Shown here: in pieces, positions 9,741 to 58,530 of the stretch
Numbering within the stretch: the stretch's first letter is position 1
Layout: every line of letters starts with the position of its first letter
From: Escherichia coli
GTDB taxonomy: Bacteria > Pseudomonadota > Gammaproteobacteria > Enterobacterales > Enterobacteriaceae
Assembly: GCF_003334335.1 (NCBI RefSeq)
Contig: NZ_QOWQ01000023.1
Reading direction: 5' to 3' (one strand)
DNA: 64,000 bases
The notes under the pieces: generated by a model
Databases searched by the model: none
Told to the model about the DNA's origin: nothing
The model's input: the letters and a program-made list of their open reading frames with translations, nothing else
Position numbers and translations under genes: made by a program

Positions 9741-9936
9741 GCGATGGTTCTCCAGGTTTACGGGCAGGTGGTTAAAACACAATAAACCGGAAGAAGGCGA
9801 AGATCGAGTGGATGTTCAGGAGCGAACGGCAATTAGCAACAGAGTGAGACTCATGACAAACGTACATCCGCCAGAGGCACGACCTTTATAAGAGCATGAA
9901 AGAACATCAACTTATTGAATTTTTAGGATTTTATTG

Positions 9937-40948: not shown

Positions 40949-41255
40949 AACAATTTCCCTTCATTGAATGAATGGAGATTTACCCAAAAACATTTCGGGC
41001 GGGATCGAGTATACACAACTAAAGCATGCGAATTACGGCGCGGGGAATTAGCGATGGCGTTTTAGGATAATTGGAATGAATATCAAATATAAGTTTCAAC
41101 TTATATTTAAATAACAATAAAAATCATAAACTTAAAATAAAAACAAAAGCAATTAATCTGCGTATTTTCCGAAATAAACAACGATTAAAAATCTATTTTA
41201 GGATTAACCTCATGGTATGATTTCCGTTAAATCACAGACAAGGGGATTTATCTGA

Positions 41256-41283
41256 TAAAAAAATGCCGACATAACGTCGGCAT
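41256..41283 (-). terminator. intrinsic terminator distal to pgi (after the 3'-UTR REPs)
   Basis: ATGCCGAC-ATAAC-GTCGGCAT stem followed on minus strand by TTTTTTT. Confidence 0.7.
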
Positions 41284-41356
41284 TGTTATTAAGGTTATTT
41301 AATCAATCGTGCTATGTATTAATTGCCGAATACGATGTACATATCGGCATCGACCT

Positions 41357-41433
41357 GTAGGCCTGATAAGACGCGACCGCGTCGCATCAGGCATCGGTTG
41401 CCGGATGCGGCGTGAACGCCTTATCCGGCCTAC
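41357..41433. repeat. REP pair (BIME) immediately 3' of pgi
   Basis: GTAGGCCTGATAAGACGCGACCGCGTCGCATCAGGC and GCCGGATGCGGCGTGAACGCCTTATCCGGCCTAC. Confidence 0.9.
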
Positions 41434-41446
41434 ATATCGACGATGA

Positions 41447-43096
41447 TTAACCGCGCCACGCTTTATAGCGGTTAATCAGACCATTGGTCGAGCTATCGTG
41501 GCTGCTGATTTCTTTATCATCTTTCAGCTCTGGCAGAATACGGTTCGCCAGCTGTTTACCCAGTTCCACGCCCCACTGGTCGAAGGTGAAGATGTTCAGG
41601 ATCACGCCCTGAGTAAAGATTTTGTGCTCATACAGCGCAATCAACGCACCCAGGCTGAACGGAGTGATTTCACGCAGCAGGATGGAGTTGGTCGGGCGGT
41701 TACCTTCGAATACTTTGAACGGCACCACGTAGTCAAGCGTTGCCGGATCTTTACCCTGATCACGATATTCCTGCTCAACCACTTCGCGGGATTTACCAAA
41801 CGCCAGCGCTTCGGTCTGGGCGAAGAAGTTAGACAGCAGTTTCTGGTGATGATCAGAGAGCGGGTTATGGGTGATAGCCGGAGCGATGAAATCGCACGGT
41901 ACCATTTTGGTTCCCTGGTGGATCAGCTGGTAGAACGCGTGCTGACCGTTAGTGCCTGGTTCACCCCAGATAATCGGGCCAGTCTGGTAATCCACAACGT
42001 TACCGTTACGGTCAACATACTTACCGTTGGACTCCATATTGCCCTGCTGGAAGTACGCCGCGAAACGGTGCATATACTGGTCATACGGCAGAATCGCTTC
42101 AGTTTCCGCACCAAAGAAATTGTTGTACCAGATGCCAATCAGCGCCAGCAGTACAGGCAGGTTTTTCTCGGCAGGCGTGGTGGAGAAATGCTTGTCCATC
42201 GCGTGTGCGCCGGAAAGCAGTTCAACGAAGTTATCAAAGCCGATGGAGAGAACAATCGACAGGCCAATCGCTGACCACAAAGAGTAACGGCCGCCAACCC
42301 AGTCCCAGAACTCGAACATGTTGGCAGTATCAATACCAAACTCGCCAACGGCTTTGGCATTGGTGGAAAGCGCCGCAAAGTGTTTTGCAACGTGTTTTTC
42401 ATCACCTGCCGCTTTCAGGAACCAGTCACGCGCGCTATGGGCGTTGGTCATAGTTTCCTGAGTGGTGAAGGTTTTAGATGCTACCAGGAACAGCGTGGTT
42501 TCCGGGTTTACTTTTTTCAGCACTTCCGCGATGTGAGTCCCATCGACGTTAGAAACAAAGTGCATGTTCAGGTGGTTTTTGTACGGACGCAGAGCTTCGG
42601 TCACCATGTATGGGCCGAGGTCAGAACCGCCGATCCCGATGTTCACTACGTCAGTGATTGCTTTGCCGGTATAACCTTTCCACTCACCGGAAATAATCGC
42701 TTCTGAGAAGGTTTTCATCTTCTCCAGCACCGCGTTGACTTCCGGCATTACGTCTTTGCCATCAACCAAAATCGGGGTATTGCTACGGTTACGCAGCGCT
42801 ACGTGCAGCACGGCGCGGTTTTCAGTGCGGTTGATCTTCTCGCCAGAGAACATCGACTTAATCGCGCCCGCCAGATCGCACTCTTTCGCCAGATCCTGTA
42901 ATTTCGCCAGCGTCTCTTCAGTGATGCGGTTTTTGGAGTAATCCACCAGCATCTGATCGTCGAAGGTTGCGGAGAACTTAGAAAAACGATCGCCGTCTTT
43001 AGCAAAAAGATCGGCGATCGTAACGTCTTTCATTTCATCGAAGTGTTTCTGTAGTGCCTGCCAGGCAGCGGTCTGCGTTGGATTGATGTTTTTCAT
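41447..43096 (-). CDS. pgi: glucose-6-phosphate isomerase Pgi (549 aa)
   Basis: [42 protein letters not shown]...; ATG at rc(43094..43096). Confidence 0.97.
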
Positions 43097-43279
43097 TAGC
43101 AATACTCTTCTGATTTTGAGAATTGTGACTTTGGAAGATTGTAGCGCCAGTCACAGAAAAATGTGATGGTTTTAGTGCCGTTAGCGTAATGTTGAGTGTA
43201 AACCCTTAGCGCAGTGAAGCATTTATTAGCTGAACTACTGACCGCCAGGAGTGGATGAAAAATCCGCATGACCCCATCG

Positions 43280-43314
43280 TTGACAACCGCCCCGCTCACC
43301 CTTTATTTATAAAT
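43280..43314 (+). promoter_or_regulatory. candidate sigma70 promoter of lysC
   Basis: TTGACA at 43280..43285 and TATAAAT-like element near 43308..43314; spacing not ideal. Confidence 0.45.
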
Positions 43315-43339
43315 GTACTACCTGCGCTAGCGCAGGCCA

Positions 43340-43620
43340 GAAGAGGCGCGTTGCCCAAGTAACGGTGTTGGAGGAGCCAGTCCTGTGATAACACCTGAGG
43401 GGGTGCATCGCCGAGGTGATTGAACGGCTGGCCACGTTCATCATCGGCTACAGGGGCTGAATCCCCTGGGTTGTCACCAGAAGCGTTCGCAGTCGGGCGT
43501 TTCGCAAGTGGTGGAGCACTTCTGGGTGAAAATAGTAGCGAAGTATCGCTCTGCGCCCACCCGTCTTCCGCTCTTCCCTTGTGCCAAGGCTGAAAATGGA
43601 TCCCCTGACACGAGGTAGTT
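43340..43620 (+). promoter_or_regulatory. lysine riboswitch (L-box) and expression platform in the lysC 5' leader
   Basis: Long structured leader with conserved AGAGGCGC...GGAGGAGCCAG...GAGGGGG...GGTGGAGCAC elements ending at the lysC RBS. Confidence 0.85.
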
Positions 43621-44970
43621 ATGTCTGAAATTGTTGTCTCCAAATTTGGCGGTACCAGCGTAGCTGATTTTGACGCCATGAACCGCAGCGCTGATATTGT
43701 GCTTTCTGATGCCAACGTGCGTTTAGTTGTCCTCTCGGCTTCTGCTGGTATCACTAATCTGCTGGTCGCTTTAGCTGAAGGACTGGAACCTGGCGAGCGA
43801 TTCGAAAAACTCGACGCTATCCGCAACATCCAGTTTGCCATTCTGGAACGTCTGCGTTACCCGAACGTTATCCGTGAAGAGATTGAACGTCTGCTGGAGA
43901 ACATTACTGTTCTGGCAGAAGCGGCGGCGCTGGCAACGTCTCCGGCGCTGACAGATGAGCTGGTCAGCCACGGCGAGCTGATGTCGACCCTGCTGTTTGT
44001 TGAGATCCTGCGCGAACGCGATGTTCAGGCACAGTGGTTTGATGTACGTAAAGTGATGCGTACCAACGACCGATTTGGTCGTGCAGAGCCAGATATAGCC
44101 GCGCTGGCGGAACTGGCCGCGCTGCAGCTGCTCCCACGTCTCAATGAAGGCTTAGTGATCACCCAGGGATTTATCGGTAGCGAAAATAAAGGTCGTACAA
44201 CGACGCTTGGCCGTGGAGGCAGCGATTATACGGCAGCCTTGCTGGCGGAGGCTTTACACGCATCTCGTGTTGATATCTGGACCGACGTCCCGGGCATCTA
44301 CACCACCGATCCACGCGTAGTTTCCGCAGCAAAACGCATTGATGAAATCGCGTTTGCCGAAGCGGCAGAGATGGCAACTTTTGGTGCAAAAGTACTGCAT
44401 CCGGCAACGTTGCTACCCGCAGTACGCAGCGATATCCCGGTCTTTGTCGGCTCCAGCAAAGACCCACGCGCAGGTGGTACGCTGGTGTGCAATAAAACTG
44501 AAAATCCGCCGCTGTTCCGCGCTCTGGCGCTTCGTCGCAATCAGACTCTGCTCACTTTGCACAGCCTGAATATGCTGCATTCTCGCGGTTTCCTCGCGGA
44601 AGTTTTCGGCATCCTCGCGCGGCATAATATTTCGGTAGACTTAATCACCACGTCAGAAGTGAGCGTGGCATTAACCCTTGATACCACCGGTTCAACCTCC
44701 ACTGGCGATACGTTGCTGACGCAATCTCTGCTGATGGAGCTTTCCGCACTGTGTCGGGTGGAGGTGGAAGAAGGTCTGGCGCTGGTCGCGTTGATTGGCA
44801 ATGACCTGTCAAAAGCCTGCGGCGTTGGCAAAGAGGTATTCGGCGTACTGGAACCGTTCAACATTCGCATGATTTGTTATGGCGCATCCAGCCATAACCT
44901 GTGCTTCCTGGTGCCCGGCGAAGATGCCGAGCAGGTGGTGCAAAAACTGCATAGTAATTTGTTTGAGTAA
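43621..44970 (+). CDS. lysC: lysine-sensitive aspartokinase III LysC (449 aa)
   Basis: MSEIVVSKFGGTSVADFDAMNRSADIVLSDANVRLVVLSASAGITNLLVALAEG... Confidence 0.97.
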   Translation: MSEIVVSKFGGTSVADFDAMNRSADIVLSDANVRLVVLSASAGITNLLVALAEGLEPGERFEKLDAIRNIQFAILERLRYPNVIREEIERLLENITVLAEAAALATSPALTDELVSHGELMSTLLFVEILRERDVQAQWFDVRKVMRTNDRFGRAEPDIAALAELAALQLLPRLNEGLVITQGFIGSENKGRTTTLGRGGSDYTAALLAEALHASRVDIWTDVPGIYTTDPRVVSAAKRIDEIAFAEAAEMATFGAKVLHPATLLPAVRSDIPVFVGSSKDPRAGGTLVCNKTENPPLFRALALRRNQTLLTLHSLNMLHSRGFLAEVFGILARHNISVDLITTSEVSVALTLDTTGSTSTGDTLLTQSLLMELSALCRVEVEEGLALVALIGNDLSKACGVGKEVFGVLEPFNIRMICYGASSHNLCFLVPGEDAEQVVQKLHSNLFE

Positions 44971-58283: not shown

Positions 58284-58530
58284 ATTGCCGGATGCGGCGT
58301 AAACGCCTTATCCAGCCTACGTTCGGCAACGGTTGTAGGCATGATAAGACGCGCAAGCGTCGCATCAGGCATCGTGCACCGATTGCCGGATGCGGCGTAA
58401 ATGCCTTATCCGGCCTACGTTCGGCAACGGCTGTAGGCATGATAAGACGCGCAAGCGTCGCATCAGGCATCGTGCACCGATTGCCGGATGCGGCGTGAAC
58501 GCCTTATCCGGCCTACAGTCAGCAACGGTT
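58284..58530. repeat. BIME array: about 2.5 tandem copies of a 98-bp unit of two REP palindromes, between aceA and aceK
   Basis: Unit starts at 58284, 58382, 58480 (ATTGCCGGATGCGGCGTAAACGCCTTATCC...GTAGGCATGATAAGACGCGCAAGCGTCGCATCAGGCATCGTGCACCG); copies near-identical. Confidence 0.9.

Follow-up and report, generated by a model that had tools for sequence, protein, structure and literature searches.

The lysC locus and its 5' leader

The stretch of DNA that we analysed (hereafter, the window) is 64 kb of the E. coli chromosome, and the element of interest lies in it immediately upstream of lysC. The open reading frame that begins at 43621 matched NF006570, lysine-sensitive aspartokinase 3, with 767.9 bits against a cut-off of 455, and RefSeq likewise names the downstream gene lysC. 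The divergent upstream gene is pgi (-), which ends at 43096. The interval 43280-43620 spans the TTGACA -35 hexamer of the promoter through the base preceding the ATG. Extended through the start codon (43280-43623), it is 100% identical to DH1 and many other E. coli strains, and the wider region 43100-43700 was found in 5,426/5,426 complete E. coli genomes, with an identity of at least 99% in 5,421 of them. The landmarks of the transcription unit are as follows.

43280-43285 (+), lysC promoter -35 hexamer TTGACA, a perfect consensus, conserved to at least 90% among 14 related leaders
43303-43309 (+), probable -10 region TTATTTA, placed from +1 = 43315 and from the conserved TTTTATTTAT block
43315 (+), transcription start +1, a G, mapped from published numbering at the sole offset that fits 7/7 landmarks
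43621-44970 (+), lysC, lysine-sensitive aspartokinase III, 449 aa, from NF006570 and RefSeq

Ghosh et al. (2024; PMC10946432) numbered the leader from the transcription start, with G309 being the G of the AUG; +1 is therefore G43315 and the lysC leader is 306 nt long (43315-43620), in agreement with the length of about 300 nt originally predicted. At this offset all seven published landmark bases (G309, G349, U354-357, A364) fit the sequence, as opposed to at most 4/7 at the 12 neighbouring offsets. Given where it lies with respect to the published +1, we infer that 43280-43285 acts as the -35 element of the lysC promoter. The best -10 hexamer is probably TATTTA (43304-43309), with an 18-nt spacer, the exact hexamer being uncertain. 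The candidate promoter of the original prediction is thus backed by a perfect TTGACA and by the conservation of both this hexamer and the TTTTATTTAT block (at least 90% in related leaders), but it was not called by a simple consensus promoter scan because the -10 region is weak. Support for the promoter consequently rests on conservation and on the published +1.

All Rfam families were scanned across the whole 64-kb window. At E values up to 0.5, Lysine (RF00168) was the sole cis-regulatory family, so that the lysC leader, as anticipated, is the only cis-acting RNA sensor of the window within the scope of Rfam at that threshold. The remaining matches were to 5S rRNA, REP-derived naRNA4 copies, STnc430 and a sub-threshold ES036. 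The STnc430 sRNA match (41145-41294, +; 79 bits against a gathering score of 47) lies downstream of the 3' end of pgi and adjoins a REP/naRNA4 copy at 41360-41430. That copy is one of the naRNA4 (CssrE) REP-derived matches on the minus strand (27460-27530, 31689-31759, 41360-41430, 58338-58415 and 58436-58513), to which weaker copies at 9936, 22817, 27361, 31590, 47408 and 58280 can be added; some are in tandem, at least six exceed the gathering score and several fall short of it. A 5S rRNA gene (63795-63910, -; 90.4 bits) occupies the right edge of the window, where an rrn operon therefore begins or ends.

The lysine aptamer

The original prediction of a lysine riboswitch in the lysC leader was to be given up if no significant covariance-model match lay over 43340-43560. 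The scan returned a match to RF00168 at 43333-43529 (+) that scores 99.5 bits, where the gathering score is 30 (E 3.1e-25), and that covers model positions 1-182 of 182 without truncation; a permissive scan gave the same match. A riboswitch feature also stands at the corresponding span in the RefSeq/PGAP annotation of another strain. We took the aptamer helices P1 to P5 from the alignment to the RF00168 model, relative to which the P5 loop of the E. coli aptamer carries an 18-nt insertion.

43333-43529 (+), lysine riboswitch aptamer, RF00168 and RefSeq riboswitch feature of the same span
43338-43343 / 43519-43524 (+), P1, model alignment
43348-43356 / 43403-43411 (+), P2, model alignment
43363-43370 / 43389-43396 (+), P2a, model alignment
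43415-43426 / 43435-43445 (+), P3, model alignment
43446-43456 / 43463-43472 (+), P4, model alignment
43474-43480 / 43508-43514 (+), P5, model alignment
43376-43380 (+), L2 loop bases GCCAG of the L2-L3 kissing contact, pairing with 43428-43432
43428-43432 (+), L3 loop bases CUGGC of the L2-L3 kissing contact, pairing with 43376-43380

For comparative analysis we gathered 80 lysC loci from species-representative Enterobacteriaceae genomes, Salmonella not being among them. When upstream regions of fixed length were first aligned globally with MAFFT, the result (906 columns) was uninterpretable because many of the loci are without an aptamer; tracing the cause led to the short leaders described in the last section. 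The 46 leaders with an aptamer and enough upstream sequence were used as alignment A1. Imposing the Rfam structure on these 46 species placed 88.3% of the cells in standard pairs, with changes on both sides in 21 of the 51 aptamer pairs, distributed over P2 (5 pairs), P2a (7), P3 (8) and P4 (1); the standard pairs of P1 and P5 showed no variation. The covariation score of the aptamer was 0.249, compared to 0.150 in shuffled alignments and 0.05-0.09 in slid controls, and none of 500 shuffles reached 0.249. Furthermore, RNAalifold recovered P2, P2a, P3, P4 and an extended P5 hairpin when no structure was supplied.

A tertiary hallmark that defines the lysine riboswitch family is the kissing contact between the L2 and L3 loops. 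In the alignment, 90.9% of the cells of this contact were paired, versus 10-48% when the pairing was slid, and a G:C to A:U double change was present in 15 sequences. The blocks CCAGAAGAGG, GGGG, GCC.AG, GCUGAAUCC, UGUCACC and GGUGG.GC.CUUCUGGG were invariant or at least 90% conserved across the 46 species, in agreement with the consensus of the RF00168 model at the junction and core. In published structures, these conserved junction and core nucleotides form the lysine pocket. The aptamer is also located where it would be expected, between +1 (43315) and the lysC ATG (43621), that is, in the 5' leader of a lysine biosynthesis gene. On all the features that can be tested computationally (score, covariation, L2-L3 contact, conserved junction and core nucleotides, and location), 43333-43529 is thus a member of the lysine riboswitch family. 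Lysine-dependent effects have been reported for the lysC leader sequence (Ghosh et al., 2024).

Two further features of the leaders deserve mention. A 5'-terminal hairpin is predicted ahead of P1.

43321-43336 (+), predicted 5'-terminal hairpin CCUGCG-CUAG-CGCAGG, -9.9 kcal/mol

By our own tally of predictions, a hairpin of -7.2 kcal/mol or stronger occupies the same place in 27 of the 46 riboswitch leaders, formed by several unrelated stems (CCUGCGC/GCGCAGG, UAUUCCC/GGGAAUA and CUUGCUCA/UGAGUAAG); the leaders of Klebsiella, Raoultella, Kosakonia and E. albertii are without it. One possibility is that this putative structure stabilises the 5' end against RNase E. The second feature is the insertion of about 110-130 nt that interrupts the P5 loop in Buttiauxella and Cedecea (L050 and L074; A1 columns about 203-330), around which the aptamer aligns. 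Three Citrobacter species (L011, L017 and L018) have similar insertions, of about 125 nt, right after the -10 region, where the short leader starts. Both kinds contain ...GAGCTTAC..AAGTAAGTGA..., and they seem to resemble the ERIC/IRU intergenic repeats.

The expression platform and the control of lysC

The conserved aptamer elements of the original prediction are present, but the aptamer does not end directly at the ribosome-binding site. P1 closes at 43524 and an expression platform of about 90 nt separates the aptamer from the Shine-Dalgarno GAGG. The following elements were recognised in the platform.

43505-43528 (+), 5' strand of the antisequester (anti-P1) helix, from the minimum free energy (MFE) fold and RNAalifold, overlapping the 3' strands of P5 and P1
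43533-43553 (+), small hairpin within the antisequester helix, from the MFE fold, its four outer pairs also in RNAalifold
43545-43580 (+), C-rich, G-poor tract, which includes part of the antisequester 3' strand (43558-43581) and the published rut and Site1
43578-43589 (+), 5' arm (CUUGUGCCAAGG) of the Shine-Dalgarno-sequestering helix, RNAalifold consensus
43604-43614 (+), 3' arm (CCUGACACGAG) of the same helix, RNAalifold, taking in the first three Shine-Dalgarno bases
43612-43615 (+), Shine-Dalgarno GAGG, 5 nt upstream of the ATG and invariant in A1

The unconstrained MFE fold forms the antisequester by pairing 43505-43517 with 43570-43581 and 43523-43528 with 43558-43563, and the helix is also part of the RNAalifold consensus. 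The small hairpin enclosed by it shows a U:G to U:A change in 8 sequences. In the sequester helix, CUUGU (43578-43582) pairs with ACGAG (43610-43614) and CA.GG (43585-43589) with CCUG (43604-43607). This helix came from RNAalifold; a simple thermodynamic fold with P1 enforced did not produce it. The tetranucleotide CUUG at 43578-43581 is common to the antisequester and sequester helices, and the antisequester also takes the 3' strands of P5 (43508-43514) and P1 (43523-43524). Given these shared nucleotides, the three structures are mutually exclusive. As isolated duplexes, the antisequester (ON) has an energy of -27.3 kcal/mol, the sequester (OFF) helix -13.7 kcal/mol and P1 -11.3 kcal/mol; as modelled, these values fit a leader that would be ON by default and would need the ligand to hold P1 and P5. 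Within the C-rich tract, windows of 25 nt have a C fraction of 0.52-0.56 and a G fraction of 0.12-0.16. The tract is where the C-rich region near +240 that was proposed as a rut site maps, and the RNase E Site1 at +250-253 corresponds in it to the UCUU at 43564-43567 (Ghosh et al., 2024).

Across the 46 species, 99.5% of the antisequester and 99.8% of the sequester cells are paired. Compensatory double changes were found in neither helix among these species, the only changes being one-sided exchanges of G:C or A:U with G:U at five antisequester pairs and one sequester pair. The platform helices are so nearly invariant that they are backed by conservation and energetics rather than by covariation, and sequence comparison of this kind cannot separate the exact pairings from other causes of conservation such as protein or ribosome contacts. 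The conservation is nonetheless meaningful because CGCUCUUCCCUUGUGCCAAGGCUG and CCCUGACACGAGG vary no more than the core of the aptamer does, and because the sequester arms stay fixed in A1 while the spacer between them can be as short as about 8 nt or as long as about 140 nt. The block CCCUGACACGAGG is, in addition, kept in all the riboswitch leaders and in nearly all the short ones.

The loop of the sequester hairpin (A1 columns 420-576; between 43592 and 43600) is the site of this length variation, with about 8 nt in E. coli and up to about 140 nt elsewhere. The loop insertion of Klebsiella and Raoultella appears self-complementary (GGCCUGGCUUAUUAAGAC ... GUUUUAAUAAGUCAGGCC) and may extend the hairpin. 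A single E. coli genome of the 5,426 (EECO1006, NZ_CP090319.1; L082 729-1504) carries an IS1 element in the platform right after P1, following 43527, with an 11-bp target duplication of 43517-43527. The promoter and aptamer are intact there but cut off from the platform and lysC.

The arrangement of these elements suggests how the leader would operate. When lysine is absent, 43505-43528, which holds the 3' strands of P5 and P1, would form the antisequester with the C-rich tract and CUUG at 43558-43581; this would free the Shine-Dalgarno sequence, hide the entry site of RNase E and Rho in a duplex and let lysC be translated. Lysine bound by the five-helix aptamer (43333-43529) would instead hold P1 and P5 closed. 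The freed CUUGUGCCAAGG (43578-43589) would then pair with CCUGACACGAG (43604-43614), burying the Shine-Dalgarno sequence and blocking translation initiation. With P1 and P5 closed, the C-rich tract (43545-43580) would also be left single-stranded, where RNase E could cut it at Site1 (43564-43567) and Rho could load on it to terminate transcription at the AUG pause, G43623, and inside the open reading frame.

Several layers of this scheme have been demonstrated by others. Experiments on the identical sequence have established that control depends on lysine, that RNase E cleaves the leader and that Rho terminates transcription (Ghosh et al., 2024, who cite Caron et al. (2012) for RNase E control of lysC). 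G309, which is G43623 here, is both a pause site and a Rho/NusG termination site, and further Rho stops map to 43663, 43668-43671, 43678 and farther into the lysC open reading frame (Ghosh et al., 2024). The translational and RNase-dependent control that the original prediction attributed to the leader is therefore upheld by Ghosh et al. (2024) and, as cited there, by Caron et al. (2012), but Rho, the third published layer, had been left out. The present analysis contributes the identity of the aptamer and its constraint, the existence, exclusivity and conservation of the platform helices, the C-rich tract and the lack of an intrinsic terminator. Taking all of this together, we consider it almost certain that the 306-nt leader (43315-43620) is the E. 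coli lysine riboswitch, with translational, RNase E and Rho control. The element is real, annotated in RefSeq and dissected experimentally, and hence already known; our analysis brings nothing new on its mechanism. The lysC leader stands as a model case in which one ligand-induced fold has three outputs: translation initiation, RNase E decay and Rho termination.

The same aptamer can serve other modes of control. The L-box of Bacillus subtilis lysC shares with the E. coli leader the aptamer family, the aspartokinase gene, the five-helix junction and the L2-L3 contact, but it feeds an intrinsic terminator/antiterminator platform, whereas the E. coli platform sequesters the Shine-Dalgarno sequence and exposes the RNase E/Rho entry site without a terminator. 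The B. subtilis precedent lends some credit to attenuation of the Bacillus type, in which lysine would promote an intrinsic (Rho-independent) terminator in the leader and control would be purely transcriptional. The level of lysC mRNA does drop with lysine in E. coli (Ghosh et al., 2024), as attenuation would have it. Yet there is no intrinsic-terminator-like site (stem and U-run) on the plus strand between the aptamer and the ATG (43529-43621), which excludes a Bacillus-type platform; the sole plus-strand site in 43000-43700 is at 43066, inside pgi, and the helix downstream of the aptamer ends on the Shine-Dalgarno sequence and not on a U-tract. Moreover, the published lysine-linked fall in the lysC transcript depends on Rho and NusG, and single-round in vitro transcription without Rho gave no lysine-dependent short product (Ghosh et al., 2024). 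Intrinsic attenuation is, on these grounds, extremely improbable.

Control could also reside elsewhere than in the RNA fold. If the aptamer were a relic, lysine would act on E. coli lysC at the promoter only, via a DNA-binding regulator. Promoter-level control of lysC does exist, according to Liao and Hseu (1998) as cited by Ghosh et al. (2024), and in many relatives lysC is driven by this conserved promoter without any aptamer (see the last section), so that the riboswitch is dispensable in some lineages. A relic is, however, hard to reconcile with core and junction bases that are conserved and helices that are kept by compensatory changes across 46 species, or with a leader that is at least 99% identical in 5,421 of the 5,426 E. 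coli genomes, and it is contradicted by reporter fusions driven by lacUV5, which were repressed by lysine only with the riboswitch present (Ghosh et al., 2024). We regard promoter-only control as highly improbable. A 57-codon open reading frame with a TTG start (43420-43593) is listed in the leader and could in principle encode a leader peptide or small protein whose translation mediates control. The length differences over its span in 45 relatives are, however, even across the three frames (14, 17, 14), indicating that no reading frame is conserved at 43420-43593, and covarying RNA helices account fully for the span; we give control by translation of this frame almost no credence. The riboswitch with its three outputs thus remains our reading of the leader.

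The element is the same as the E. coli K-12 lysC riboswitch described by Ghosh et al. (2024) and, as cited there, by Caron et al. (2012): all the published landmarks map exactly, and the two share their ON/OFF architecture, RNase E Site1 and C-rich rut, with no difference detected. Among other E. coli riboswitches, thiC (TPP) and ribB (FMN) are also translational and gate Rho via a C-rich tract and a start-codon pause, although they differ from lysC in ligand and aptamer fold (Ghosh et al., 2024). The half-life of the lysC pause is not modulated by the ligand, unlike that of thiC (Ghosh et al., 2024), and lysC goes beyond thiC and ribB in directly exposing an RNase E site ('nucleolytic repression').

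Short lysC leaders in related Enterobacteriaceae

The original prediction called the riboswitch expected for this gene. That is true of E. coli, where the leader was found in every one of the 5,426 genomes, but not of the family as a whole. Three of the 80 loci had too little upstream DNA to judge, and 31 of the 77 assessable loci (about 40%) showed no aptamer similarity in the 1.2 kb that precede lysC. Twenty of these 31 were scanned with covariance models, and no Rfam family was matched. The leader is conserved and about 78 nt long at 30 of the 31 loci; that of Atlantibacter (L078) is different and unalignable.

lysC loci without an aptamer: L004 (1090-1203), L005, L007, L009, L011-L019, L021, L034, L044, L045, L048, L049, L051, L064-L066, L069, L070, L073, L075, L076, L078, L079, L081

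The aptamer-less loci keep the pgi side and the promoter up to 43314, one base before +1, and their similarity to E. coli resumes at about 43550-43600. Missing from the short leaders are the aptamer and the G-rich antisequester strand (about 43328-43550). They keep the Shine-Dalgarno-sequestering hairpin and a region homologous to the C-rich tract, the latter without the CGCUCUUCC antisequester partner. In E. coli, CTGCGC occurs as a direct repeat at 43322-43327 and 43551-43556, and the short leaders look like the product of a deletion between the two copies, since (C)TGCGC is the sole block common to both ends of the E. coli leader and to all the short leaders. After CCANGG, all 30 scorable short leaders read TC[G/A]C[T/G], whereas 44 of 47 riboswitch leaders read CTGA and the other three CTTAT, TTGAT or CTAAT. 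These shared derived characters, together with the loss of CGCUCUUCC, make the short leaders one sequence family. We also considered repeated deletion at CTGCGC, by which each short leader would be nearest to the full-length leader of its own genus; the shared derived characters argue against it.

On a neighbour-joining (NJ) tree of the lysC coding sequence, built from p-distances and weakly resolved at depth, the short-leader loci are scattered. They include most of the sampled Citrobacter, the Enterobacter cloacae complex with Lelliottia, and also Trabulsiella, Atlantibacter, Pluralibacter and others. All the sampled Citrobacter with enough upstream DNA are aptamer-less except for a strain labelled Citrobacter sp. 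18056. Escherichia itself is divided: the riboswitch is present in E. coli, Escherichia sp. MOD1-EC7003 and E. albertii but missing from E. whittamii and Escherichia sp. E1V33. The lysC DNA of the riboswitch-less Escherichia is about 84% identical to that of E. coli and the flanks are 89-93% identical; the greater divergence of the gene hints at allele exchange by recombination. Between horizontal transfer and ancient polymorphism, the NJ tree is too weak at depth to choose.

We find it reasonably probable, if far from assured, that the lysC leader of Enterobacteriaceae exists as two alleles, one with the full-length riboswitch and an aptamer-less one of about 78 nt that would be 'locked-OFF' in E. 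coli terms. If so, the short allele would be a locked-OFF platform that still supports growth and hence a natural experiment on the dispensability of the riboswitch. According to a survey of 2017 (PMC5584792), the lysC riboswitch is well conserved in Enterobacteriales, and our literature search on riboswitch loss upstream of lysC in Salmonella and Citrobacter found nothing relevant, though such a loss may still be reported. If undocumented, the short leaders offer ready natural deletion variants with which to gauge what the riboswitch contributes beyond promoter-level and allosteric lysine control.

The coding DNA of lysC in Escherichia falls into three deep lineages that are about 84-87% identical to one another (L003, labelled E. 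coli SCPM-O-B-8794, L004 and L005, compared with 43621-44970). Their proteins are 95-97% identical and the flanking pgi DNA about 92-93%. By this comparison, lysC in Escherichia seems to be unusually diverged at synonymous sites, or imported.
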